From assembly GCA_017505165.1 (NCBI GenBank), contig JAFVPU010000138.1, positions 1 through 43,882 of the forward strand: a stretch of 43,882 nt of DNA, given 5' to 3'. This document shows, in pieces, positions 3,730 to 33,230 of this stretch; position 1 is the stretch's first letter, and every line of letters begins with the position of its first letter. The notes beneath the pieces were generated by a model. That model saw nothing but the letters and a program-made list of their open reading frames with translations. It did not search any database and was not told the DNA's origin. The position numbers and the translations under genes were made by a program. This DNA comes from Clostridia bacterium. Its GTDB lineage: Bacteria; Bacillota; Clostridia; Christensenellales; UBA1242.

Positions 3730-3804
3730 GCCTCGATAGCTCAATGGTGGAGCAACCGGCTGTTAACCGGTAGGTTACAGGTTCGAGCCCTGTTCGGGGC
3801 GCCA
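3730..3804 (+). tRNA. tRNA-Asn (anticodon GTT), CCA encoded
   Basis: 75-nt cloverleaf parsed by hand: GCCTCGA|TA|GCTC|AATGGTG|GAGC|A|ACCGG|CTGTTAA|CCGGT|AGGTT|ACAGG|TTCGAGC|CCTGT|TCGGGGC|G|CCA. One G-U pair in the acceptor stem. Confidence 0.9.
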
Positions 3805-15111: not shown

Positions 15112-15134
15112 AACCACCTTATAGGTGGTTTTTT
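15112..15134 (+). terminator. intrinsic terminator
   Basis: AACCACC / GGTGGTT hairpin followed by a T-run. Confidence 0.8.
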
Positions 15135-15246
15135 CACGTTAAAATACAAAAAATTTCAAATCAAAGTTGTTTTGCTATTGAAAAAATACTCAACAATTAT
15201 TGATTTTTATTTTTTTATATGATATCATATAAGCATAGAGGTAAAT

Positions 15247-18200
15247 ATGGCAAATATCACTTATAAAGAAATAAAAACAAAAAGTATCACAGATACATTG
15301 TTTTTACACATCAAAGATGGAGATGTAATAAAGTATGTTTCGATCCAAGATTTGGCTATACAAGAAGGCAAAGGTATGATTGGGATTGACAGTCTTTCTA
15401 AGCTCAAAAAAGCGAATACAGAAGGACGACTTTTCACCAAGAAAAGCAATGGGGCGAAAGATAGACAAATTGTTTTGGTAGATGCCAATTTTTATGAAAG
15501 AGAAGTTCACAATGAATTCGCAGAGAATGGATCAGGATTTTTCATTTCAACAACTATTCAAGGAAACAAGGATGTTCCTGCTGGATGTCAACGTGCATTA
15601 AGAATTAAGACTAACAGTGATGGAAAGCAAATTGGTATCAAAAAGAAAAAAGACAAAGACCATTTGGAAGAAAGGGAATATTTGTTGGTTACTCTTAGCA
15701 ATGGTGATACCAAATATCTTTCAAGAAATGAAATTGTAAGTTCAAAATCAAAAAGACCTTTTGGTGCAAGAGAGCTCTCAAATCTAGCAGATGGCAAGAA
15801 GTTTAACATAGAAGATTTGGAAGGTAATAGGATTGAAAAGGTTGATATAACTCAAGCATATATGTTTGAAAATGCAACAGTTACTGACAAGAAGTTGCCA
15901 GCGAGAGAAACTTTTGATGGTCATAGACATATTACTTTGAAAACAGATAAAAATGGTAATATTGAAGAAGAAACTGAGATAATAGACAATGTATATACAG
16001 AACAAAGATACTTGAAAGACGAAAAGAAGCCAATTATTAGAATAACCAATTACGAATCAAACAGAAATGAAAATGGCGATTTTGTAAAAGTTGTTTTTGC
16101 AGGCGAATATACAGAAACTTTGTTGGATAAAAAAGAATTATTTTTAGACAGCGGATTGACAAAACCTGTAACCAATTTTTCAGATATGGTGGGAAAAGTT
16201 TTGTTTTCAAAGTCAAATGATGATGCTACTCATTTCAGGGTTACTCAACCAATAAGTGCTATTCAGGCGAATTATACATATACAAAGAAACAGTATCTTC
16301 AAGAAACAGATAAGAAAGAAGATATTTATTCACCTAACACTTATCTTAAATTGGAAAGTGGTAGTTATGTGAAAGAAACAGAATCTGTCAGACCTATATG
16401 CTACGAATACACGAAATTGGATGAAACTCCTGAAGTTTATTTGGCAAATGTTGTTGACGCTGTAAAAGGAGATATTTCAATAATAATTCCTGCCAGTGCG
16501 GTGAAAAAGAAAAACAAGTCCGAGACTTTTAAATATGGTTATTATACTATTTCAAAAGATAAGATTTTTGGATTGAAAAAATCAAATAAAAGAATGGCAG
16601 ATTGTGATGTTATACAAACTAGTACCGAACAGGATAAGCATCAGTCATGTCAGGTTCTTCGCACTGTTCAAAAATATGATGAAACAACAAAAGAAGCAAT
16701 TCGTGTAAACAAAGCAAATATTCAAGATATATTAAAGCAAGTTGGTGATGAATTCTTAAGAGATTACAAAGAAGGTAAATATATTATCAACGAAGTTTTG
16801 AATGCAAATGGCGAATATGAAATGATTATTAGAGGCAAGAGATTTGTTTTCACAGATCATCTTGATTTACCGGATTATTCAAATGGATATTCAGAATATT
16901 CTTGTATAAAACCAGATGGGCAATATAACCTCGGTGCTGGGTTGAAAAAAAGCTTCAAGAAATGGGGCAAAAAGACTTGGGAAAGAGGATACAAAGCATA
17001 TCTCATTGGTTGGCCTTTGCTTGTGATGAGTCCTGTTCTTGGAGGATTATTTTTGGGTGCGATAGCGGCATCTGCTCTCGCTGTGCCAATTTCAGAAATT
17101 GCAAAAGCAGGAAAGGTGAATAGTGCCAATACTTTGCTTAAAGACAAAACAAAATGTGTCAGCAAGTTAAACAAAAAGGATATTTTCATAGAACTCAAAA
17201 TAGAATATGAAAAAGCGATAAAGAAAGGTAATAATTTCACAAAAGAAGATCAATCTCGCTTCCTTGAAAGAATGGAGAAGTTGGAAGCTCAAACAAGTCA
17301 ACTTGCTGGTGGAAAAACCATTGCAGACTTTGAAATCAAAGGCGGAAAGAAGACCCCAATTGATGAATCAAATATTGAGGAATATAAGATATTTAAAGTC
17401 GAAATGCAAAAAGAAGAAGCTGATCTTAAAAAATTGCTCAAAGATATGAAAAGAGGCAAAATAACAAGAGATGAGTATAATGCAAAATTCGACGAACATC
17501 AAAAGCATTTGTACAATTATGTTGCAAAAGGTGTTATCAAACCAAAAGATGAAAAATATCAAGAAATAATAGATGCTATAAATACTGTCAAAGGATTTGT
17601 TATTGCAAAACAAGGTGAAATGCCCAAGGTTAGAAAGAAAGTTAGTCAACAAAGACAAGCTGAAATCAAAGAAAGTGTTGTGGATAAAGAGTTGAAAATA
17701 GGCAAGGACTTCAAGTGCACAATAGGAAAAATCAAAAAAGAAGAAAATGACAAGATAATCAGCGATTTGATTGATGTTGCAAGTGAAACAAGAGTTAATT
17801 ATGACGAAGTTATCACACATTCATATCACTCTGGAATGAATGACGAGAAGGAAAGAAAGAAACCTCAACCAAAAGCGAAAGAGGAAGAAGCAGTTGCAAC
17901 TCATGAAGATGTTAAGACTGAAACAAAAATTGCAGGATTAGACTTTGAGATTGCTGTATACAAAGAGGTTGAAAAAGCATCAAAAACCAATCCGGGAGCA
18001 ACAGAGATATCATTTAAACCAGTTGGTGTCGTTGAGGAAACATTAAGTGCAAATTCTGTAAAGAATATCAGAAAAGCGATTAAATTATTAGAAACTGATA
18101 ATGTTAGAGAAAACGATAGAAAATTGGTCAAAAAATATATAAAAACAAATTTGGAGAATTTCCTCAATATAAAAGGATTGAAGAAAGAGCAAGAAGAAAG

Positions 18201-18312
18201 ACTCAAAAAGATAGCAGAAAGCTATAATGATGTGATTCAAAAAGAAAAAGAAGCAAAGAAACAATCTCAAGAAGAAGCAGAAAAAAATAAAGAATCAACA
18301 AGTACAAAATAA
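15247..18312 (+). CDS. large orphan protein (1021 aa) with one central hydrophobic hairpin and a K/E-rich C-terminal half
   Basis: Long uninterrupted ORF with its own promoter (TGaTATCAT) and an AGAGGT SD. The only hydrophobic stretch is AYLIGWPLLVMSPVLGGLFLGAIAASALAVPI (16996-17091). No domain recognised. Confidence 0.7.
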   Translation: MANITYKEIKTKSITDTLFLHIKDGDVIKYVSIQDLAIQEGKGMIGIDSLSKLKKANTEGRLFTKKSNGAKDRQIVLVDANFYEREVHNEFAENGSGFFISTTIQGNKDVPAGCQRALRIKTNSDGKQIGIKKKKDKDHLEEREYLLVTLSNGDTKYLSRNEIVSSKSKRPFGARELSNLADGKKFNIEDLEGNRIEKVDITQAYMFENATVTDKKLPARETFDGHRHITLKTDKNGNIEEETEIIDNVYTEQRYLKDEKKPIIRITNYESNRNENGDFVKVVFAGEYTETLLDKKELFLDSGLTKPVTNFSDMVGKVLFSKSNDDATHFRVTQPISAIQANYTYTKKQYLQETDKKEDIYSPNTYLKLESGSYVKETESVRPICYEYTKLDETPEVYLANVVDAVKGDISIIIPASAVKKKNKSETFKYGYYTISKDKIFGLKKSNKRMADCDVIQTSTEQDKHQSCQVLRTVQKYDETTKEAIRVNKANIQDILKQVGDEFLRDYKEGKYIINEVLNANGEYEMIIRGKRFVFTDHLDLPDYSNGYSEYSCIKPDGQYNLGAGLKKSFKKWGKKTWERGYKAYLIGWPLLVMSPVLGGLFLGAIAASALAVPISEIAKAGKVNSANTLLKDKTKCVSKLNKKDIFIELKIEYEKAIKKGNNFTKEDQSRFLERMEKLEAQTSQLAGGKTIADFEIKGGKKTPIDESNIEEYKIFKVEMQKEEADLKKLLKDMKRGKITRDEYNAKFDEHQKHLYNYVAKGVIKPKDEKYQEIIDAINTVKGFVIAKQGEMPKVRKKVSQQRQAEIKESVVDKELKIGKDFKCTIGKIKKEENDKIISDLIDVASETRVNYDEVITHSYHSGMNDEKERKKPQPKAKEEEAVATHEDVKTETKIAGLDFEIAVYKEVEKASKTNPGATEISFKPVGVVEETLSANSVKNIRKAIKLLETDNVRENDRKLVKKYIKTNLENFLNIKGLKKEQEERLKKIAESYNDVIQKEKEAKKQSQEEAEKNKESTSTK

Positions 18313-18375
18313 ACTTTATAAAGTTGTGAAATTTGATTGACAAAATAATTTTATAACTATATAATTGTTATAATC

Positions 18376-18528
18376 CAATGAGTGAAGTGGCGATTCACTG
18401 GGAGATATTGAAAAGATATCCGTTCCTCTTGACGTAATAAGAAATTAAGGTGGGATTATCCAATTAGGGTGGAACCGCGGTAAGTAGATTTATCGTCCCT
18501 ATGCAATTAGTTTGCATAGGGATTTTTT
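18376..18528 (+). promoter_or_regulatory. T-box leader (glycine-type, short form) with terminator
   Basis: AATTAGGGTGGAACCGCGG (18462-18480) matches the T-box core. Terminator CCCTATGCA / TGCATAGGG plus a T-run at 18497-18528. TTGACA-17-TATAAT promoter at 18337-18365. A GGC triplet at 18389-18391 is a candidate specifier but was not assigned with certainty. Confidence 0.75.
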
Positions 18529-18681: not shown

Positions 18682-20046
18682 ATGGGAAGTTTTGACAAAA
18701 TAGTTAATTTATGTAAAAATCGTGGATTTATTTTTCCAGGAAGTGAGATTTATGATGGTCTTGCAAACACATGGGATTATGGTCCTGTTGGAGTTGAATT
18801 GAAGAATAATATCAAGCGTGCTTGGTGGAAGAAGTTTGTTCAAGAAGCAGACAATTCTTTCGGTGTTGATGCTGATATTTTTATGAACAGTAAAGTGTGG
18901 GATGCAAGTGGTCATACCGCGTCTTTTTCGGATCCAAAGATGGATTGTAAGTGTTGTAAAACTCGTCATAGAGCAGACAATTTGATTGATGCTCATAGCA
19001 AGAAGACTGTCAATCCAGATTTGATGAGTAATGAGGAAATGGAACAATATATTTATAACAACAAAGTTCCTTGTCCAAAGTGTGGAAAGTGTGATTGGAC
19101 CAATATTCGTAATTTCAATCTTATGTTCTCAACATCTCGTGGTGTAACAGATGAAGGACAAAATCTTATTTATCTTCGTCCAGAAACAGCACAAGGAGAA
19201 TTTGTCAATTTCCTTAATGTCCAACGTAGTATGAGAGCAAAAGTACCTTTTGGTATTGCTCAAATCGGTAAAGCGTTTAGAAATGAAGTAACTCCAGGAA
19301 ACTTCACTTTCAGAACAATTGAATTCGAACAAATGGAACATCAATGGTTCTGCAAGGCAGAAAATAGTCTTGCTGACTATGAAGTTTATAAGAAAAAAGC
19401 TTTGGATTTCTTGCTTTCAATTGGATTCAATCCAGAACATTTGCGTTATCATGATCATGATAAACTTGCTCACTATGCGAAAGCAGCTTGCGATATTCAA
19501 TTCTTGTATCCTATCGGTTGGGAAGAACTCAATGGTATCCACCACCGTGGAGATTGGGACCTCAGTCGTCATCAAGAATACAGTGGAAAATCAATGCTTT
19601 ATCTCGATCCATATACAAACGAAAAATATATTCCAAATGTAGTGGAATATTCTATCGGTGCAGATAGATTGACTCTCGCAGTATTGTGTGAAGCATATGA
19701 CGAACAAACTCTCGAGGGTGGTGATACACGTGTTGTTATGCATTTCCATCCAGCAATCGCTCCATACAAGGTGGCTGTGCTTCCGCTTCAAAAGAATTTG
19801 AGCGAAAAAGCAATGGAAGTTTATCGCAAACTTAGCAAGAATTTCATGGTAACATATGACGAAGCAGGTTCAATCGGTAAACGTTATCGTCGTCAAGATG
19901 AAATCGGAACACCAATGTGTGTTACAATAGACTTTGATACATTGGAAGATAACTCTGTTACAATTCGTGATAGAGACACAATGGAACAAATCCGTCTTCC
20001 GATTGAGAAGTTGGTTGAATATGTAAGCGAAAAGGTGCAGTATTAA
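18682..20046 (+). CDS. glyQS: glycine--tRNA ligase (homodimeric GlyQS type)
   Basis: FIFPGSEIYDGLANTWDYGPVGVELKNNIK, YLRPETAQG and FRNEVTPGNFTFRTIEFEQME motifs. AAAGGAG SD. Confidence 0.95.
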   Translation: MGSFDKIVNLCKNRGFIFPGSEIYDGLANTWDYGPVGVELKNNIKRAWWKKFVQEADNSFGVDADIFMNSKVWDASGHTASFSDPKMDCKCCKTRHRADNLIDAHSKKTVNPDLMSNEEMEQYIYNNKVPCPKCGKCDWTNIRNFNLMFSTSRGVTDEGQNLIYLRPETAQGEFVNFLNVQRSMRAKVPFGIAQIGKAFRNEVTPGNFTFRTIEFEQMEHQWFCKAENSLADYEVYKKKALDFLLSIGFNPEHLRYHDHDKLAHYAKAACDIQFLYPIGWEELNGIHHRGDWDLSRHQEYSGKSMLYLDPYTNEKYIPNVVEYSIGADRLTLAVLCEAYDEQTLEGGDTRVVMHFHPAIAPYKVAVLPLQKNLSEKAMEVYRKLSKNFMVTYDEAGSIGKRYRRQDEIGTPMCVTIDFDTLEDNSVTIRDRDTMEQIRLPIEKLVEYVSEKVQY

Positions 20047-20120: not shown

Positions 20121-21806
20121 ATGGCTAAAACAAATGAAATTGTTAGACTTTCAGAAGGAAAAGGTGAAAATAAGGTGGTATATAGTTATACCGCTGATTC
20201 TATCAAAAAATACGTAAAAGAAGAACTTGTTTCAGCAGTGGAATCAGGAGAACAATCTCCACTGATGCGTTTGTTGCATCTCAGAAGAGGTAATCTCAAT
20301 TTTGTCAAGAAAGATTGTGCAGATGCAATTTTGGACAAAATCGAAGATTTCAAAAAGAGAGTAAAAACAGAAGTTAATGTTACTATCGAACATATTGATG
20401 GTGGATATGTAAAAACTATCAAAGATATTGTAGATGAATCTTTTGAGTCTTTGATGAAAAATGAAAATTTCATAAAAAAGATGATTGTGGAAAATCCTAT
20501 TCAAGTTATTGAAATGGGATTGTTCAAAGACTATATCAATAATGATAATAATATGTTTATACACTTATTTAATAGTTTATTGGCAAGCAAAGATCCAAAT
20601 GCTCGCATACTTGCTGATAAATTATACAACAAATATATTGTTAAAGATATTGACAAAATGATGATGATTGCAAAGAATCCAAAAGCAGAAAAATATGTTG
20701 ATGAAATTCTTTCTGGTGATCATATTCAAAACAAAACTCAATATGGCAAATTTGCCAAAATTGCAGTAAAGAATAATCCGGCAATATGGATTCGTGTTAA
20801 CGCAAAGAAAATGGCACCAGCAGATATATTGTCTATGGTGAAAACTAATATTTTGCATGTACCTTCTATAATGAACATGTTAACTCAACTTGATGCTGCT
20901 ACAGCAAAGAGATATCTCAAGATTATGATCAAACATTCAAATGCTTTGTTGCAAGCGAAAGTTGATGAAATTAACTCAATTGCAGATCCTCAAGAACGTA
21001 AACAAAAACAGGATCAATTGAAAGTTGAAATAAAAGATTATATCTCTGAATTTAGTGCTTCTGCCAAAACAGTAGCAGGATATGTATTATTCTGTGAATC
21101 TAATAAATTGCAAGAAAAAACAGATGAATTGAATTCTGAAGCACTCAAACTTCATGGAAATAGAGAAAATGAAATCAATTTGCAATATAAGAAGACCGAA
21201 GCAACTGCGACAAAGATTTTGGAACAACACAGAAGCAAAAAAGCTCTTGAAGCATTAGAAGTTGACACAGATGAACTCCGTTCATATATATTCATGGCTG
21301 TATCAAAAGATATGGGATTAAAAAATTTCCAAAAAGATGAATCAAAAACTTTCATGGAAGTTATGAAGGCAAGATTGAAAGAAATAGACAAGAAATTCCC
21401 TAAGGACGCATATCCTGACAATAATAAGGAATTGAAAAACAAAGTTGTTAGAGACACATTGAAAGATTTGTTGGCAGGAAAAGTAAAGACAAAATTGGGT
21501 CAAAAATTGCACAATTCATCAATTCCAAAACGTGAAGAAATAGCAAAGAAACTTACTGATGAAAGAGTTGGCATAATAGTTGATGAGAAATATTCAGAAT
21601 TGATAAAAGAGTTTGAAATTAAATATAACGAAGCACTTCAACATTATGCTGAATTGAGAGACAATAAGGTTGAAGCAAGCCTTGAGGTTGCTCAAAAACA
21701 AATTGATAAGAATGAGGCTTCAAAGAACAAGAAAATCGAAAAACTCAAAAAGAAAAGTGATGAATTGATTGATACTATAAAATCTGAAAATGATTTGGGG
21801 CTTTAA
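20121..21806 (+). CDS. orphan 561-aa helical K/E-rich protein
   Basis: Long ORF with a GGAGGG SD and a TTGACA-17-TAATAT promoter. No TM segment and no recognised domain. Confidence 0.65.
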   Translation: MAKTNEIVRLSEGKGENKVVYSYTADSIKKYVKEELVSAVESGEQSPLMRLLHLRRGNLNFVKKDCADAILDKIEDFKKRVKTEVNVTIEHIDGGYVKTIKDIVDESFESLMKNENFIKKMIVENPIQVIEMGLFKDYINNDNNMFIHLFNSLLASKDPNARILADKLYNKYIVKDIDKMMMIAKNPKAEKYVDEILSGDHIQNKTQYGKFAKIAVKNNPAIWIRVNAKKMAPADILSMVKTNILHVPSIMNMLTQLDAATAKRYLKIMIKHSNALLQAKVDEINSIADPQERKQKQDQLKVEIKDYISEFSASAKTVAGYVLFCESNKLQEKTDELNSEALKLHGNRENEINLQYKKTEATATKILEQHRSKKALEALEVDTDELRSYIFMAVSKDMGLKNFQKDESKTFMEVMKARLKEIDKKFPKDAYPDNNKELKNKVVRDTLKDLLAGKVKTKLGQKLHNSSIPKREEIAKKLTDERVGIIVDEKYSELIKEFEIKYNEALQHYAELRDNKVEASLEVAQKQIDKNEASKNKKIEKLKKKSDELIDTIKSENDLGL

Positions 21807-23479: not shown

Positions 23480-23569
23480 ATTATCTCCTTTATGACTTAA
23501 TTCTACAAAAGAATTATCAAAATGTCAAATCAAAAGTATAAGTTTTATTTTTTATGGAAAAATATTCTT

Positions 23570-23884
23570 ATGGACGTAGTTTGTAGGAAATATAGTTGTA
23601 TCTATAATGAAAAATCAAAGTGTAGCAGAAAAAATCTCCAGATAGATAAGATCGCTTATTGTGATGATATAAAAATAGACAACAATAAAATTGTTGAAGA
23701 TGTTTCAAAAGATATGTTTTCACATGAACCAGATGTTGCTCCTTATCATCATTGTAAAAATATGAATATTATGTGTGAAGATAAAGATTGCATATTCAAC
23801 AAAAGTGGAGAATGCTTTTCAAATGGAATTTTTGTTGGAAGTGAGAAAAACAGAGCAGGGTGTAATAGTTTCGTAAAGAGATAA
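23570..23884 (+). CDS. DUF1540 domain protein (two Cys-rich repeats)
   Basis: VVCRKYSCIYNEKSKCSRKNLQI...YCDD and CEDKDCIFNKSGECFSNGIFVGS...AGCNSF fit DUF1540. Start is uncertain (track ORF 23522). Confidence 0.6.
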   Translation: MDVVCRKYSCIYNEKSKCSRKNLQIDKIAYCDDIKIDNNKIVEDVSKDMFSHEPDVAPYHHCKNMNIMCEDKDCIFNKSGECFSNGIFVGSEKNRAGCNSFVKR

Positions 23885-23923
23885 TAAAACTTCACAAAAA
23901 ATTTTTTCTTGAGTGTAAATTTG

Positions 23924-23952
23924 TTGACAACAAATTATCTTTGTGATATTAT
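23924..23952 (+). promoter_or_regulatory. consensus extended -10 promoter of the leuS leader
   Basis: TTGACA 23924-23929, 17-nt spacer, TGaTATTAT (-10 at 23947-23952), then 6 nt to ATG 23959. Confidence 0.65.
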
Positions 23953-23958
23953 GTAAGC

Positions 23959-23994
23959 ATGAAAATAAGAAATTCAGCATTACTATTGCGTTAG
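23959..23994 (+). CDS. candidate leuS leader peptide MKIRNSALLLR*
   Basis: 11 codons, with TTA CTA TTG (three consecutive Leu, three different codons) at 23980-23988. The stop abuts the first hairpin of the leader. No SD, so it would have to be translated leaderless. Confidence 0.4.
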   Translation: MKIRNSALLLR

Positions 23995-24040
23995 GGTGCC
24001 TAGATTTAGGCACAGTTTTTGGTTGTGCTGAAAATATAGT

Positions 24041-24068
24041 TTGACAGCACAATCGCTGTCAATTTTTT
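24041..24068 (+). terminator. attenuator terminator in the leuS leader
   Basis: TTGACAGC / GCTGTCAA stem, ACAATC loop, TTTTTT run, 20 nt upstream of the leuS ATG. The 5' arm overlaps an alternative hairpin TTGTGCTG (24023-24030) / CAGCACAA (24045-24052). Confidence 0.7.
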
Positions 24069-24087
24069 ATTGAACAAAGGAGTTCTT

Positions 24088-26496
24088 ATGAAAGAATACA
24101 AACATATTGAGATTGAGAATAAGTGGAGAAAATATTGGGAGGACAATCAAACATTCAAAACTGATGTTTGGGATTTTTCTCGTCCAAAATTTTATGCATT
24201 GGATATGTTTCCTTATCCATCAGGTTCAGGTCTTCATGCAGGACACCCAGAAGGTTATACTGCGACAGACATTGTTTCAAGAATGAAGAGAATGCAAGGA
24301 TACAATGTATTGCATCCAATGGGATTCGATTCGTTCGGTCTTTCGGCTGAACAATTTGCTTTGGATTCAGGCAAGCACCCAGGAACATTCACAGAATCTA
24401 ATATGGCATATTTCATTAATCAGCTCAAAAATTTGGGATTTTCTTTTGATTGGGATAGATGTATTTCAACTCATCAACCAGAATATTATAAGTGGACACA
24501 ATGGATTTTCAAGCGTTTGTATGACGACGGTTATGCAAAATTTATAGACATGCCTGTGAATTGGTGTGAAGAACTTGGTTGTGTGCTTGCCAATGATGAA
24601 ATTGTTGACGGTAAGAGTGAAAGGGGCGGTTTCCCGGTTGTCAAGAAAAATATGAGACAATGGGTTATTGATACGCCTGCTTTTGCAGAAAGATTGCTCA
24701 AAGGTCTTGATGAAATTGATTGGCCAGAATCAACAAAAGCTATGCAACGAAATTGGATTGGAAAATCTGAAGGTGTTGAAGTTGACTTCAAACTTGAACT
24801 TGGTGGAAAACTTTCAATATTTACTACTTGTATAGAAACTATTTATGGAATAACTTTCATGGTGCTTGCTCCAGAACACAAACTTGTTCAAAAATTGAAA
24901 GATCATATTGAAAATTGGGATGAAGTACAGGCATATATTGATGAAACAAACAAAAAATCAGATTTGGAACGTACAGATTTGAACAAAGGAAAATCAGGTT
25001 GTGAACTTAAAGGAATCTATGCGATCAATCCTGTCAACAATAAACGTGTGAAAGTGTTTATTGGAGATTTTGTTTTGGCTTCATATGCTGATGGTGCAGT
25101 TATGGCAGTGCCAAGTCATGACCAAAGAGATTTCGAGTATGCTATTGCTCATAATATTGAAATGATTCAAGTCATAGATGGTAGAGATGTGAGTGAATCT
25201 GCTTTTGAAAAGCAAGATTATCTTGGCAAAGGTTGCAAGTTGATCAATAGTGAAGAGTTTACTGGTCTCACTGTCGAAGAAGCAAAAGTTGCAATCACAG
25301 AGAAACTCGAGAAGATGGGTATAGCAAGAAAGAAAGTGAACTATCGTATTCATGAATGGATATTTGCTCGTCAAAGATATTGGGGAGAACCTGTTCCGGT
25401 GGTACATTTTGAAGATGGTACGACTAAGTCTATCGGTGATGATGAGTTGCCACTTCTTCTTCCTTATATTGAAGACTACAAACCAGCAAAAGATGGAAGC
25501 AGTCCATTGGCAAAGAAAGATGATTGGGTCAATGTTATTGTTGATGGAAAACCTGCAAAAAGAGAGACAAGTACTATGCCTGGTGCAGCTGGATCAAGTT
25601 GGTATTATTTGCGTTATATAGATCCGCATAATGACAAAGAATTGGCAAATCCAGAGTTGTTGAAACATTGGATGCCGGTAGATCTTTATATGGGTGGACC
25701 TGAACATGCTGTAGGTCATTTGCTTTACTCAAGAATGTGGAATAATTTCTTGTATGAAAAAGGTATTTCACCATGCAAAGAACCATTTAAAAAACTTGTT
25801 CATCAGGGCATGATTCTTGGCGCAAATGGAATAAAGATGGGTAAGAGATATCCAAAATATGTGGTAGATCCAAATGATATTGTTGAGAAATATGGTGCAG
25901 ATACACTTCGTTTGTTCGAAATGTTTATGGGGCCTATCGAGGCTTCAAAACCTTGGGACGATAATGGAGTTGCAGGATCAAGAAAATTCTTGGATAAGAT
26001 ATATAGAATATATCAAGAAAAACAAATCGTAGATCAAGAAAACAAAAATCTAGATCTTGTGTATCACCAAACAGTGAAAAAGGTTACTGAAGACTATGAA
26101 ACACTCAATTTCAATACAGCTATTTCTCAAATGATGATATTTATCAATGCATTATCGAAGGAGACTATTTTCCCAAGAGAATATGCAGAAGATTTTGTGA
26201 AGTTGTTGAATCCAATATGTCCTCATATAACTGAAGAATTGTGGCAAGAATTGGGACACACAGGTACAATTTCCTATGAAGCATGGCCTAAATATGATGA
26301 AACAAAAATGATTGTTGATGAAGTTGAAATTCCTATTCAGATCAACGGAAAATTGAGAGGAAAAATCACTGTCAACAAGTCTGCATCAGAAGGAGAAATT
26401 AAAGAAAAAGCTTTGATTGAAGTTGCTTCTTATGTTGAAGGTGGATATAAGAAAATTATTTATATTCCAGGAAGAATTTTCAATATAGTTGTATAA
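24088..26496 (+). CDS. leuS: leucine--tRNA ligase
   Basis: YALDMFPYPSGSGLHAGHPEGYTATD (HIGH region), the CP1 editing region, and KMGKR in place of KMSKS. AAAGGAG SD before ATG 24088. Confidence 0.95.
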   Translation: MKEYKHIEIENKWRKYWEDNQTFKTDVWDFSRPKFYALDMFPYPSGSGLHAGHPEGYTATDIVSRMKRMQGYNVLHPMGFDSFGLSAEQFALDSGKHPGTFTESNMAYFINQLKNLGFSFDWDRCISTHQPEYYKWTQWIFKRLYDDGYAKFIDMPVNWCEELGCVLANDEIVDGKSERGGFPVVKKNMRQWVIDTPAFAERLLKGLDEIDWPESTKAMQRNWIGKSEGVEVDFKLELGGKLSIFTTCIETIYGITFMVLAPEHKLVQKLKDHIENWDEVQAYIDETNKKSDLERTDLNKGKSGCELKGIYAINPVNNKRVKVFIGDFVLASYADGAVMAVPSHDQRDFEYAIAHNIEMIQVIDGRDVSESAFEKQDYLGKGCKLINSEEFTGLTVEEAKVAITEKLEKMGIARKKVNYRIHEWIFARQRYWGEPVPVVHFEDGTTKSIGDDELPLLLPYIEDYKPAKDGSSPLAKKDDWVNVIVDGKPAKRETSTMPGAAGSSWYYLRYIDPHNDKELANPELLKHWMPVDLYMGGPEHAVGHLLYSRMWNNFLYEKGISPCKEPFKKLVHQGMILGANGIKMGKRYPKYVVDPNDIVEKYGADTLRLFEMFMGPIEASKPWDDNGVAGSRKFLDKIYRIYQEKQIVDQENKNLDLVYHQTVKKVTEDYETLNFNTAISQMMIFINALSKETIFPREYAEDFVKLLNPICPHITEELWQELGHTGTISYEAWPKYDETKMIVDEVEIPIQINGKLRGKITVNKSASEGEIKEKALIEVASYVEGGYKKIIYIPGRIFNIVV

Positions 26497-29908: not shown

Positions 29909-32900
29909 TTATCTTTTGATTTTAATAGTGATTTGTTCGTCGCCTATTTCAATAGTACTTGAATATTCTGAATCGTCAAATACTGCAATTTCTTTAATCA
30001 AAAGTTCTGATTTGATTTTGTCCATGTATTTATTTAATATTTCGTTCAAATCAGTTCCATTTGTTGAGAATTCAGCAATAATTCTATCTTCAACATTGAA
30101 TCCAGCATCTTTTCTCATTACTTGAGCAGAGCGGATAAGCTCACGAGCCAAACCTTCAAGCATCAATTCACGATCGATTGTGATATCAAGAACGACTGTA
30201 ATTTCATTTTCATTAGAAATTACAAATTCATCTTTTGCTTTAGTGTTAAGAGTGAATAATTCGCTGGCAAGATTTGTGAATTCGTGTATATCAACACTAC
30301 CATTTTTATAACCAGCTACCATTTTTGACATTTCATCATCAGTTGCATTTGACAAATAGTTCTTCACTTTTTGTACATCACCTTTAAGCACAGCGCCAGC
30401 TTTACGGAAATCAAGGCCTAAGAATTCGATATTGAATTTTGAATTATCTTGTTCCATAACAACATTTTTGATATTGAGTTCACTTTTAATGATATCACGG
30501 TACAATTCAACAGCACGAGCAACATCTTCATTACCATTGATATACATAGTTTTAAGTGGTTGTTTCACTTTGATTTGATTTTCATTTCTGAGTTTGCTTG
30601 CCATTGTGAATATATCACGAACATAGTCTGTCAAGAGAGTATAACCTTCGTCTTTTACTTTAAATTCTGCGATTGCATAGCGGTGTAGTGCAACACTTTC
30701 TTCAGCGTTATTGTCAAGAGATTTCACCGCATTTTGCCACAAATATTCGCTTATAAATGGTATGATTGGGAACATAACCATAGATATGTTTTTGATTGCA
30801 TAGTGCAAGCAGAAATAAGCGTTCATTGTGTCGATATTGTCTTCGCTCTTGTAGAATCTACGACGATTGTTTCTGATATACCAGTTTGTCAATTCGTCAA
30901 CAAGCATTTCAAAATCTTTGCTAACTCCACCAAAATCTTGATTTGAGTAACAATTGTGAGCATTTTCAGTGAATTCGTTTATGCGATTGATCAACCATTT
31001 GTCCATAAATGTCAAACTGCTTTCATCAGGAGTGAAATTGGTCAAATCTGGCTTATCAATGCAAGCATAAGTATTCAAGAAAATGTACGCGTTCCACAAA
31101 CCTAATATTTTGCGTTTTACTTCATCACATGTGTCTCTTCCGAATTTTACGTCATTGATGAGAGGAGTAGCAACAAAATTGTATCTGATAATATCTGCAC
31201 CAATTTCTTCAAATGCAGTATCAAGTGGAATGTTGTTAGGACTTGATTTACTCAATTTCTTTCCGTCTTGAGCAAGGAGCATAGGAGTGCATCCGATACG
31301 TTTGTATGGTGCTTTTCCGGTGAGAACAACACTCATAACCAACAAAGAATAGAACCACAAACGAACTTGCTCTTTTCCTTCAATTACACATTCCACAGGG
31401 AAATTCTTTTCAAAGAAATCTTTGTCAGTGAAATATTTCTTTGTACTAAATGGAGTGATACCAGCATCAAGCCAGCAATCTCCAACTTCTTTGATACGTT
31501 CGACTTTGCTTCCGCAGTGAGGACAAGTGATTTTGATTTTATCAATATAAGGTCTATGAAGATGTGGTAATGATTCAACTTCTTCAGCGCTAGACAATTT
31601 TTTAAATGTTTCGAGACTGTCAACAACAGTCAATTCTCCACATTCTTTACAAGGGTAGAATGGAAGTGGTAGACCATAATAACGAGAACGACTGATTGCC
31701 CAGTCTCCCATATTATTCAACCAGTCCAACATACGCTTTTTCATAAAGTCAGGACTGAATTTTACAGGTTCAATTGCATTGATGAGTTGAGGGCGAAGTT
31801 CGTCCATTTTGATAACCCATTGATCAACAAGGCGGAACAACAATGGATTTTTACATCTCCAACAGTGAGGATAAGCATGTGTATATTTGTGAGTGTAATA
31901 CAATTTGTTACGTTTTTTCATTTCTTCGAATACGAAATCACGCAATTCATCCGTGTTGGCATTTCTGCCAGCAAATATTCCAAAGTTGCTGTAATAAATA
32001 CCAGCTTCATCAATTGGCATTACGTTTGGCAAGCCTAATTGTTTTCCAAGTTCAAAGTCGGCATCACCACATCCAGGAGCGATATGTACAGCACCTGTAC
32101 CTTCGCTTGAATCAACCAAATCCCAAGCAACAATTTTGTGCTCAAAGTTTTGTTCGCTGAGCTCAGGGAAGCATGTATCATAAGTCAAACCAACCAATTC
32201 GCTACCTTTTATAGTCTTTACAACTTCAACAACGTCATCTTTTAAAACTTTCATAACGTTTGCGCAAACAATGACGTTACGATCACTTGATTTTATTTTG
32301 ACGATATTATAATCAAGTTCAGGATTTACAGCAATGGCCACATTTGCTGACAATGTCCATGGTGTAGTGGTCCATACCAACATATCGTTGTTGCTATCTT
32401 TGATTGGGCATTTGAAGAAAATTGCAAGGCAAGTTACGTCTTTATAAGCATCTTGATCACTCATTTCGTGATCGGATAAACTTGTTCCACAACGAGTACA
32501 CCAACGCATAATACGATGGCTGTTTGAAATATAACCTTTGTCTTGACATTTTTTGAGGAAATGCCAGATGGTGGTGATATTGTTGTCGCTGTTTGTATAG
32601 TAACTGTCATCCCAATTCATCCATTGTCCAAGACGAATAGAACTTTGAGTTTGACTTTTTGAGTATTTATCAACGGTTTGCAAGCATTTCTCAACAAATT
32701 TGTCTATGCCATAGGCTTCAATATCTTTTTTGCTGTTTAAGCCAAGTTCACCTTCTACACGGAGTTCGACAGGGAGACCATGTGCGTCGAAACCATTTTG
32801 GAAATGTTCATCACAACCATTTATCGCAGCGAACTTAATCATAGCATCTTTGAAAGTTCTATTATATGCATGATGAAGACCCATATTATAGTTTGCTGTG

Positions 32901-33043
32901 ATTGGGCCATCAAGGGTGGCAAAAAATTTGCCTGTACGCTTGTTTTGTTCTTTTAATTTTTCAAAGATTTTCTCATCCTGCCAAAATTTCAAAACTTGAT
33001 TTTCCATCTCGACATAATTAAGGTTTCCTTGTTCTTTTTTCAT
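29909..33043 (-). CDS. ileS: isoleucine--tRNA ligase
   Basis: WTTTPWTLSANVAIAV, GTGAVHIAPGCGDADFELG, YPHCWRCKNPLLFR and KLSKS motifs. ATG 33043 is preferred over the track's TTG 33079. Confidence 0.9.
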   Translation of the reverse strand: MKKEQGNLNYVEMENQVLKFWQDEKIFEKLKEQNKRTGKFFATLDGPITANYNMGLHHAYNRTFKDAMIKFAAINGCDEHFQNGFDAHGLPVELRVEGELGLNSKKDIEAYGIDKFVEKCLQTVDKYSKSQTQSSIRLGQWMNWDDSYYTNSDNNITTIWHFLKKCQDKGYISNSHRIMRWCTRCGTSLSDHEMSDQDAYKDVTCLAIFFKCPIKDSNNDMLVWTTTPWTLSANVAIAVNPELDYNIVKIKSSDRNVIVCANVMKVLKDDVVEVVKTIKGSELVGLTYDTCFPELSEQNFEHKIVAWDLVDSSEGTGAVHIAPGCGDADFELGKQLGLPNVMPIDEAGIYYSNFGIFAGRNANTDELRDFVFEEMKKRNKLYYTHKYTHAYPHCWRCKNPLLFRLVDQWVIKMDELRPQLINAIEPVKFSPDFMKKRMLDWLNNMGDWAISRSRYYGLPLPFYPCKECGELTVVDSLETFKKLSSAEEVESLPHLHRPYIDKIKITCPHCGSKVERIKEVGDCWLDAGITPFSTKKYFTDKDFFEKNFPVECVIEGKEQVRLWFYSLLVMSVVLTGKAPYKRIGCTPMLLAQDGKKLSKSSPNNIPLDTAFEEIGADIIRYNFVATPLINDVKFGRDTCDEVKRKILGLWNAYIFLNTYACIDKPDLTNFTPDESSLTFMDKWLINRINEFTENAHNCYSNQDFGGVSKDFEMLVDELTNWYIRNNRRRFYKSEDNIDTMNAYFCLHYAIKNISMVMFPIIPFISEYLWQNAVKSLDNNAEESVALHRYAIAEFKVKDEGYTLLTDYVRDIFTMASKLRNENQIKVKQPLKTMYINGNEDVARAVELYRDIIKSELNIKNVVMEQDNSKFNIEFLGLDFRKAGAVLKGDVQKVKNYLSNATDDEMSKMVAGYKNGSVDIHEFTNLASELFTLNTKAKDEFVISNENEITVVLDITIDRELMLEGLARELIRSAQVMRKDAGFNVEDRIIAEFSTNGTDLNEILNKYMDKIKSELLIKEIAVFDDSEYSSTIEIGDEQITIKIKR

Positions 33044-33091
33044 AATTAAATCATTGCTCCTTTTTTTATTTGTTGTCAAACTGATTACTAC

Positions 33092-33158: not shown

Positions 33159-33230
33159 CTACTTCTTTTTAGATGGTAAAATAATATTGCCTATAATAAT
33201 AGTATATATGATTATGCTAAATAATGTCAT
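33159..33230 (-). CDS. candidate ileS leader peptide MTLFSIIIYTIIIGNIILPSKKK*
   Basis: 23 codons, 8 of them Ile (ATA, ATC and ATT all used). The ATG lies 7 nt after the -10 box and has no SD. An in-frame ATG at 33236 would add MT. Confidence 0.4.
   Translation of the reverse strand: MTLFSIIIYTIIIGNIILPSKKK

Follow-up and report, generated by a model that had tools for sequence, protein, structure and literature searches.

A putative leucine leader-peptide attenuator upstream of leuS in a Clostridia bacterium

Classical attenuators upstream of leuS, the leucyl-tRNA synthetase (LeuRS) gene, were predicted in Streptomyces in 2005 (Seliverstov et al., PMC1262725), and no aminoacyl-tRNA synthetase gene of the Firmicutes was known at that time to use classical attenuation (PMC1262725). 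In S. lividans, a leaderless 12-codon leader, LeuL2 (MRAVRLLLSEPR), followed by a hairpin and a U stretch, was described upstream of leuS by RNA-seq with a mapped transcription start, and leaderless mRNAs made up 17% of the primary transcription starts in that study (PMC8079986). For the Firmicutes, two reports describe a His leader peptide upstream of hisS paralogues and hisZ in bacilli, where a T-box was replaced in the hisS case (PMC2965389), and a Leu-rich attenuator peptide that belongs to the S. aureus ilv-leu operon (PMC5794164). The present analysis concerns the leader of leuS in a DNA stretch of 43,882 nucleotides from a Clostridia bacterium of the order Christensenellales (contig JAFVPU010000138.1 of assembly GCA_017505165.1; the whole stretch is called the window). 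With a probability of about 0.75, this leader is a Leu-responsive, ribosome-mediated transcription attenuator, by which leuS transcription would be tuned to the supply of charged tRNA-Leu. The original prediction, made from the letters of the stretch, had placed a Leu mini-ORF (ORF, open reading frame) at the transcription start, followed by mutually exclusive hairpins and a terminator upstream of leuS. This core was supported, and it was strengthened by the comparison of 11 leaders; all the elements listed in the prediction were found, at the positions given there, when checked against the window.

The features of the leader and its gene are given below in window positions, where S0 to S5 denote the pairing segments of the RNA and MFE stands for minimum free energy.

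23924 to 23929, plus strand: −35 hexamer TTGACA (string check and consensus scan), followed by a 17-nt spacer and present in 11/11 leaders
23944 to 23952, plus strand: extended −10 element TGaTATTAT (TG at 23944-45, TATTAT at 23947-23952)
23959 to 23994, plus strand: mini-ORF MKIRNSALLLR* (ATG at 23959, TAG at 23992-23994), predicted to be leaderless
23973 to 23985, plus strand: S0 (segment 1), UUCAGCAU-U-ACUA, the ORF stretch pairing with S3 as an anti-antiterminator; found in the full-length MFE fold
23980 to 23988, plus strand: putative regulatory Leu codons TTA CTA TTG, synonymously variable in relatives
23996 to 24013, plus strand: hairpin 1 (S1:S2), GUGCCUA-GAUU-UAGGCAC (S1, GTGCCTA, at 23996-24002; S2, TAGGCAC, at 24007-24013), with a U-rich stretch after it
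24020 to 24032, plus strand: S3 (segment 2), UGGUUGUGCUGAA, that is UGGU-U-GUGCUGAA, with S0, S2 (GGCACA/UGUGCU) and S4 as alternative partners
24021 to 24054, plus strand: antiterminator S3:S4 of 10 bp, GGUUGUGCUG (24021-24030) / CAGCACAAUC (24045-24054), found in one MFE fold and favoured when the ORF is masked
24041 to 24068, plus strand: intrinsic terminator S4:S5, UUGACAGC-ACAAUC-GCUGUCAA plus U6 (in DNA, TTGACAGC/GCTGTCAA plus T6), with an 8-bp G+C-rich stem whose 5' arm overlaps S4
24077 to 24082, plus strand: Shine-Dalgarno sequence AAGGAG of leuS (string check)
24088 to 26496, plus strand: leuS, leucyl-tRNA synthetase of 802 aa, with the Pfam domains tRNA-synt_1, tRNA-synt_1_2 (the LeuRS editing domain) and Anticodon_1

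The LeuL2-leuS leader of Streptomyces is the closest known design. In both cases leuS is the gene under (here putative) control, an ORF of 11-12 codons has three Leu codons in a row and is leaderless (as predicted here), and downstream of the ORF come an antiterminator hairpin, a terminator hairpin and a U tract. Streptomyces belongs to the high-GC Actinobacteria, however, while the window has ~32% G+C, and no sequence relationship is evident, the published LeuL2 peptide sharing only LLL with MKIRNSALLLR. In the present leader an extra hairpin, S1:S2, stands between segments 1 and 2 directly after the stop codon, and leaderless mRNAs, common in Streptomyces, are rare in Firmicutes. The likeness is likely one of design, with an independent (convergent) origin.

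In the window, 6 nt (GTAAGC) separate the −10 hexamer from the ATG of the mini-ORF, and the promoter had 11/12 matches, plus the TG, in a simple consensus scan. The mini-ORF is made up of the codons ATG AAA ATA AGA AAT TCA GCA TTA CTA TTG CGT TAG. Leu codons used in the leaders are rare in the genes of the window, CTA, CTG and TTA accounting for 5%, 2% and 13% of Leu codons, respectively. The peptide motif LLL was present in 2% of the small ATG ORFs in the window, and hence a single LLL mini-ORF is not rare; the present one stands above chance because the leader was kept in 10 other distinct sequences.

At the RNA level, the core strings of S3 (TTGTGCTG, 24023-24030) and S4 (CAGCACAA, 24045-24052) were confirmed, and the antiterminator and the terminator are mutually exclusive, with CAGC common to S4 and the 5' arm of the terminator. 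Both hairpin-plus-T sites were reported by a simple scan, and the 1-kb region contained four terminator-like sites vs 0.3 expected from shuffles. The folding energy of the leader compared with shuffled versions gave z = −4.4, and the stability of hairpin 1 was ~−10.7 kcal/mol. Hairpin 1 with its U-run was also considered as a first terminator and was rejected as a poor one, the U run lying 3-6 nt away from the stem; an RNA polymerase pause site at this position is plausible. The original prediction had described a five-segment chain, in which the pairings S1:S2, S2:S3, S3:S4 and S4:S5 are all possible, and it had missed a sixth segment, S0, and its pairing with S3. S0 takes in the Ala codon of the ORF together with its first and second Leu codons. 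When the leader was folded from the ATG to the U tract, S0:S3 enclosed hairpin 1 and left S4 free for S5. The six segments S0-S5 are built on alternating GCAY-like and GUGC motifs.

Relatives were collected through the LeuRS protein. In a large protein collection, the LeuRS clusters with 76-87% identity numbered at least 120, a few bearing the label 'MAG: Clostridia bacterium', and DNA was fetched for 12 of these clusters (below, WIN is the leader of the window itself, and L- and P-numbers are the fetched loci and the protein clusters). A homologous leader was found in 9/12 clusters (P0001, 7, 9, 14, 21, 27, 39, 68, and 106; loci L081, L166-L176, and L178-L185); P0002 and P0003, which form the 'PKYYALD' LeuRS subclade (L082-L085), and P0088 (L177) had a plain promoter and no attenuator. 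One further, divergent leader (L086) was obtained from a metagenome scan with the LeuRS N-terminus, and the other loci inspected from that scan (L087-L130) had T-boxes or no leader. The total was thus 11 distinct leaders, the window and 10 metagenomic relatives with LeuRS ~77-87% identical. A profile hidden Markov model (HMM) applied to all 186 sequences (790 kb) recovered exactly these 11 and no further leader in any fetched locus, L131-L165 included, and a covariance model applied to 15 sources (112 kb) recovered the 11 leaders and nothing else comparable. Among the GTDB species-representative genomes the best LeuRS was 77% identical and the scan returned no homologous leader; the nearest of these genomes had either no leuS leader (L025, L077, and L026) or a T-box. 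Wherever the element was seen, leuS followed directly, whereas the genes on its upstream side made up four different contexts.

Six clusters of 830-aa 'LeuRS' (P0069, P0070, P0073, P0075, P0076, and P0079) had a 28-residue N-terminal extension, MSAHCLVVLKRFFDSITAVNFLLILGEY. The extension is an L181-type leader read as protein from a GTG start, through hairpin 1, antiterminator and terminator (S2-S5; reference, L181 1417-1500). Judged from this match, the 830-aa forms are a gene-calling artefact of the attenuator, and those clusters carry the leader too.

Conservation of the Leu triplet and the reading frame in relatives was one of the tests on which the original prediction had staked itself, and both were kept, so that this test did not refute it. 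All 11 leaders had TTGACA, a 17-nt spacer and a −10 hexamer, and the distance from the −10 hexamer to the ATG was exactly 6 nt in 10/11 leaders and 7 nt in L181. The start codon was ATG in every leader, the ORF was 10-11 codons long, and the differences in length were multiples of three. The run of Leu codons counted 3-4 in ten leaders and two in L086. The homologous peptides were MKINSLALLLL (L081 and L167), MKINTLALLLL, MKINALALLLR (L169 and L171), MNKQTLALLLR, MNKSLALLLL, MLNKLLALLL, MKSLNLLLTI, and MKKNIFKALL. Synonymous drift was seen in the Leu codons (TTA, TTG, CTA, CTG, and CTC), including the third and fourth ones, which are outside any predicted helix, and the stop codon was located 1-4 nt upstream of the hairpin-1 core in 10/11 leaders. 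The ATG, length, frame, stop position and synonymous Leu drift are signs that the mini-ORF is under coding constraint. No Shine-Dalgarno sequence was found upstream of the mini-ORF in any of the 11 leaders, and leuS itself was always preceded by AAGGAG-like sites. The fixed −10 spacing, the strict ATG and the missing Shine-Dalgarno sequence fit what is expected of a leaderless ORF, and the mini-ORF is probably of this kind.

The pairings were compared across the 11 leaders with anchor-based tables and a covariance-model alignment. These were used in place of the MAFFT alignments (A1 and A2), in which the ORF of L175, L178, and L086 was misaligned and the terminator of the L081 group (L081, L166, and L167) was shifted. 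The covariance-model alignment (A5) had shifted S3:S4 columns in L166 and L167 and was imperfect at hairpin 1 of L175 and in the terminator region of L081; because of these columns, paired cells were counted only for the terminated conformer (S0:S3 + S1:S2 + S4:S5). In this conformer, 90.8% of the cells were paired and 15/27 pairs changed on both sides, and 0/500 shuffles were as good; with the partners slid by 1-3 columns, 31-49% of the cells were paired.

The S0:S3 helix was 91.6% paired in the same alignment and had the same register in 10/11 leaders, L178 using another one. The Ala codon in S0 was invariant except in L178, which does not have it, and there the Thr-Ile codons (CACAAUU) pair with GGUUGUG in place of the Ala-codon pairing. 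Two positions upstream of the Ala codon covaried (A-U/G-U/G-C at one and C-G/U-G/U-A/A-U at the other). The ORF:S3 duplex was better than those of shuffled ORFs in 7/11 leaders (z ≤ −2.2, and ≤ −2.9 in six of them), with z = −3.6 for WIN. In hairpin 1, the inner pair had compensatory changes (UA/GC/AU), and the terminator, present in all 11 leaders, had changes on both sides at 7/8 pairs across the family. The table for S3:S4 covered 10 leaders, L086 having no anchor; 9-10 of them paired at the core positions, and two pairs changed on both sides (UA to GC and UA to CG). In L178, S3:S4 as well as S4:S5 is maintained by a three-way change (S3 U>C, S4 A>G, S5 U>C).

As far as can be told from its sequence, the leader has every feature of the leader-peptide attenuator class (trp/leu/his/pheST). 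It shares with the enterobacterial trp, leu, his, and pheST leaders, pheST being the aminoacyl-tRNA synthetase example among the classical attenuators, a leader peptide rich in cognate codons, competing helices of the 1:2, 2:3 and 3:4 type, in which segment 1 overlaps the regulatory codons and pairs with the 5' arm of the antiterminator, and an intrinsic terminator. The enterobacterial leu leader likewise uses rare CUA codons. In the enterobacterial leaders the ORF lies behind a 5' untranslated region with a Shine-Dalgarno sequence, whereas the ORF is predicted to be leaderless here; in addition, hairpin 1 is placed inside the 1:2 loop and S2 is a second partner of S3, which brings the present arrangement nearer to his than to trp. 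In a trp-type assignment, segments 1, 2, 3, and 4 would correspond to S0, S3, S4, and S5, respectively, with hairpin 1 inside the 1:2 loop.

The mechanism would operate as follows. The strong consensus promoter would start the transcript at, or 1-2 bases from, the A of the AUG, and the 11-codon MKIRNSALLLR would be translated as a leaderless message. With plentiful Leu-tRNA, the ribosome would reach the stop codon and open the base of hairpin 1, by which S2 would be freed, and its release would then free S0. S0 (with hairpin 1 enclosed) or, for a short time, S2 would capture S3, and S4 would be left to pair with S5, followed by U6, ending transcription before leuS. With scarce Leu-tRNA, the ribosome would stall with a Leu codon in the A site, masking S0 and stopping short of hairpin 1, and S2 would stay with S1. 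S3, left without an upstream partner, would pair with S4 once this is made, and the resulting 10-bp antiterminator would block the terminator and let RNA polymerase read into leuS. With no translation at all, termination is predicted. The arrangement may be described as a 'double lock', in which the stalled ribosome would hide S0 and the intact post-stop hairpin would hide S2, only a ribosome at the stop codon unlocking termination; this description is tentative and belongs to the wider reading of the lineage given below.

Thermodynamic folding gave the expected preferences in part of the family. At equilibrium with a free ORF, the probability of the terminator stem was 0.83-1.0 in WIN, L169, L171, L173, and L181; with a ribosome-sized mask placed for a Leu codon in the A site, it was 0-0.34 in the same five leaders, and S3:S4 took over. 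When the leaders were folded length by length, S3 paired with the G of the Ala codon as soon as it was transcribed in 10/11 leaders with a free ORF, and with S4 in 11/11 leaders with the ORF masked.

For the ten close leaders, ribosome positions were counted with the first P-site nucleotide as reference, and in L181 and L175 the location of the hairpin-1 core was recomputed. The core started at +11 to +24 when a Leu codon occupied the A site (+11 to +14 for the last Leu codon of the run, +13 to +24 for the earlier ones) and at +7 to +11 when the stop codon did. Position +11 is reportedly the boundary of the mRNA entry site, according to ribosome helicase work. A Leu-stalled ribosome would therefore leave hairpin 1 at or outside the entry site, and only a ribosome at the stop codon would reach into it. 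Since the hairpin-1 core is at or outside the entry site, S2 should stay locked to S1 during a Leu stall. The original prediction had voiced the worry that stalling would favour the terminator, the opposite of the expected response; this rested on a stalled ribosome covering S1 and falls away with the geometry above. Because the Leu-stalled ribosome would not cover S1, stalling would favour the antiterminator, as expected.

Several points weigh against the attenuator. A clean equilibrium switch was not obtained in 6/11 leaders: the L081 group was antiterminated even with a free ORF, L178 and L086 were terminated in every state, and L175 barely changed. For these six leaders the model depends on co-transcriptional order, for which the support comes from the modelled length-by-length folds alone. 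The ORF:S3 duplex was no better than those of shuffled ORFs in 4/11 leaders (L169, L171, L173, and L178; z −0.7 to −1.2). The cores of S0/S2/S4 and S1/S3/S5 were nearly invariant, so that most of the covariation is contributed by helix flanks and by differences between subgroups of only 11 related sequences, in a covariance-model alignment that leans towards the structure used to build it. For the first two Leu codons, coding constraint is only partly separable from pairing constraint. Moreover, leaderless translation is uncommon in Firmicutes, and with a transcription start a few bases further upstream the AUG of the ORF would no longer be 5'-terminal, while a Shine-Dalgarno sequence would be missing too.

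In Firmicutes, synthetase genes, leuS among them, are usually controlled by a T-box (RF00230). The original prediction had stated that the leader is not a T-box, and this was borne out, as RF00230 had no match at the gathering score, nor at E ≤ 10 on 23800-24200; the 10 homologous leaders gave no RF00230 match either. No Stem I, specifier loop or GGUGGNACCGCG-like T-box core was found in the 110-nt leader. The likeness of TTAGGGTG to the start of the T-box core, also pointed out in that prediction, is real in the window, but it is unique to the window and was not kept in the relatives. As positive controls, the T-box model scored 48.6 bits at 18369-18503 of the window, and 117 bits and 104.6 bits on the leuS upstream regions of two more distant relatives (L036 and L022, respectively), and T-boxes upstream of leuS were recognized by eye in L005, L023, L087, L091, and others. 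The Rfam scan that had been proposed with the prediction assigned no family to the leader at the gathering score; at E ≤ 10 the best match was SSRC10 on the opposite strand, and the enterobacterial Leu, Thr, His, and Trp leader families were not among the matches. The present leader resembles T-box leaders in its position upstream of leuS, in the choice between terminator and antiterminator and in the charging of tRNA-Leu as the signal. It differs in its sensor, which would be a translating ribosome and not direct tRNA binding, and in its length (110 nt vs ~200 nt or more). With the hisS/hisZ and ilv-leu leaders of Firmicutes it shares ribosome-mediated attenuation in a T-box-dominated phylum, but the genes are other ones, no sequence relationship is evident, and in the excerpts available those leaders are not described as leaderless. 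Most likely, the leuS leader is an independent replacement of a leuS T-box.

Three other explanations of the leader were weighed. An attenuator of five segments, without S0, would let only the terminating ribosome matter: it would open S1, S2 would capture S3 and S4:S5 would terminate, while S1:S2 and S3:S4 would form without translation or with a stalled ribosome and give read-through, so that the default would be ON. The S2:S3 core (GGCAC/GUGCY) can indeed pair in 11/11 leaders and is strengthened from G-U to G-C by S3 changes in L175 and L178, and the distance from the stop codon to the core of hairpin 1 stays within 1-4 nt. Yet the S2:S3 core had no double-sided covariation, its flanks paired in only 6-7/11 leaders, and the helix has 5-6 bp vs 10 bp in the antiterminator. 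A stop-codon mask made S2:S3 and the terminator dominate in WIN, L173, L181, and L166 (terminator probability 0.53-0.75) but left L171, L167, L081, and L169 mostly antiterminated. The invariant Ala codon and the ORF:S3 complementarity, significant in 7/11 leaders, would also be left unexplained, and we consider this explanation unlikely; S2:S3 is likely a second, transient lock inside the six-segment attenuator rather than an alternative to it. It is still less probable that the mini-ORF is untranslated and that the RNA switch is read by a protein binding the GUGC/GCAC motifs (for example LeuRS itself, in the manner of E. coli thrS) or, in a very reduced T-box-like way, by tRNA-Leu. Leaderless translation would be unusual in a Firmicute, and the strongly conserved, alternating GUGC/GCAY motifs might be places where a protein binds. 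The UGGU before S3 in 8/11 leaders could pair with the ACCA end of tRNA-Leu, but it is replaced by UGCG in the L081 group, and the T-box model that finds T-boxes elsewhere had no match on the leader at E ≤ 10. The fixed ATG, the kept frame and stop position and the synonymous Leu drift outside the helices would have no explanation in an untranslated switch.

The least probable explanation is that there is no regulation, the unit being a small RNA in its own right, ~110 nt long, or a leaky terminator by which leuS is merely set to a constitutive level or shielded from transcription arriving from upstream. The unit does have a strong promoter and a terminator of its own, but it was found only directly upstream of leuS, in four upstream gene contexts, and a conserved, covarying antiterminator over the terminator would have no purpose in a constitutive terminator. 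The sub-threshold Rfam match to the streptococcal small RNA SSRC10 could be cited for a small RNA; it is on the minus strand (23991-24082), far below the threshold (28 bits vs a gathering score of 56, E = 0.0023), and is explained by the near-palindromic hairpins, and the SSRC10 identity was rejected as their by-product. On the minus strand, moreover, TTGACA-18-TATATT looks like a promoter, and the same palindromic hairpin can be read as a terminator; these were likewise judged to be a by-product of the hairpins. The Leu-responsive attenuator with S0 remains the preferred reading.

Two other synthetase genes in the window have leaders of their own. A short T-box-like leader with a GGGTGGAACCGCG core and a terminator was found at 18369-18503 (plus strand), upstream of a class II synthetase gene (18682-20046). 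It scored 48.6 bits against RF00230 (E = 8e-10), and the gathering score being 93, the default Rfam scan misses it. This leader is probably a glyQS-type T-box, which shows that T-boxes are still in use in this genome, on one synthetase gene at least. In front of ileS (29909-33079, minus strand), TTGACA (33266-61), a 17-nt spacer, TAAAAT (33243-38) and 7 nt were followed by an ATG at 33230. The ORF that starts there has 23 codons and encodes an Ile-rich peptide with eight Ile, MTLFSIIIYTIIIGNIILPSKKK*, the stop codon being at 33161-33159 (minus strand), and it is followed by a terminator, AUGUCGGC-AAAGC-GCUGACAU plus U6, at 33117-33091 (minus strand). The leuS covariance model gave a weak match on this leader (E = 0.1), and no clear switch was seen when this leader was folded at equilibrium under ribosome masks.

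The leuS leader, as the Leu version, and the ileS leader with its Ile-rich ORF would together correspond to a replacement across the lineage, while the glyQS-like gene keeps its T-box. According to this reading, an uncultured low-GC Firmicute lineage of the gut or rumen swapped the T-boxes of its branched-chain synthetase genes for leaderless mini-ORF attenuators with cognate codons. We put this forward tentatively, as a possibility that falls somewhat short of an even chance.

The upstream neighbours of leuS in the window are rplI (minus strand) and a small DUF1540-like gene. The latter is a small ORF (104-120 aa; 23522-23884, plus strand) with faint DUF1540 matches in relatives, in many of which it is also located directly upstream of the leuS leader, between rplI and leuS. 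Between this ORF and the leuS promoter there is no clear terminator, only an A6T6 stretch at ~23897-23908. In L167/L168 (1173-1300), a tandem direct repeat of ~64 nt (ACTAATTTACTTCGCTTTGCTTGTAAATTGAGTTTGTTATGTT...) was found between the DUF1540-like gene and the leuS promoter, and it was absent from the other leaders. The window has a single tRNA-Asn (GTT) gene at 3730-3804 (plus strand), and no tRNA-Leu gene was found in it by the tRNA/Rfam scan. Two long ORFs, at 15247-18312 (plus strand, 1021 aa) and 20121-21806 (plus strand, 561 aa), had no Pfam family at E ≤ 0.001; upstream of the 1021-aa ORF, the preceding gene has a clean terminator hairpin (AACCACCTTATAGGTGGTT plus T, ~15113-15136).

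The regulatory principle is a textbook one and not new; of note are its occurrence on this gene and in this lineage, the start that is probably leaderless, the hairpin after the stop codon and the apparent ileS case. In practical terms, leuS is mis-extended over the attenuator by gene callers, giving the 830-aa 'LeuRS', and no Rfam model annotates the element. As a compact (110-nt), well-conserved and probably leaderless attenuator, it offers a clean case in which to test leaderless translation in Firmicutes and the effect of a post-stop hairpin on attenuation. For the Firmicutes, in which the T-box is the near-universal control of synthetase genes, the leader would mean that a leader peptide sensing the ribosome can take the place of the T-box on leuS and, as it appears, on ileS of the same genome too, with both devices reading the same signal, the charging of tRNA.

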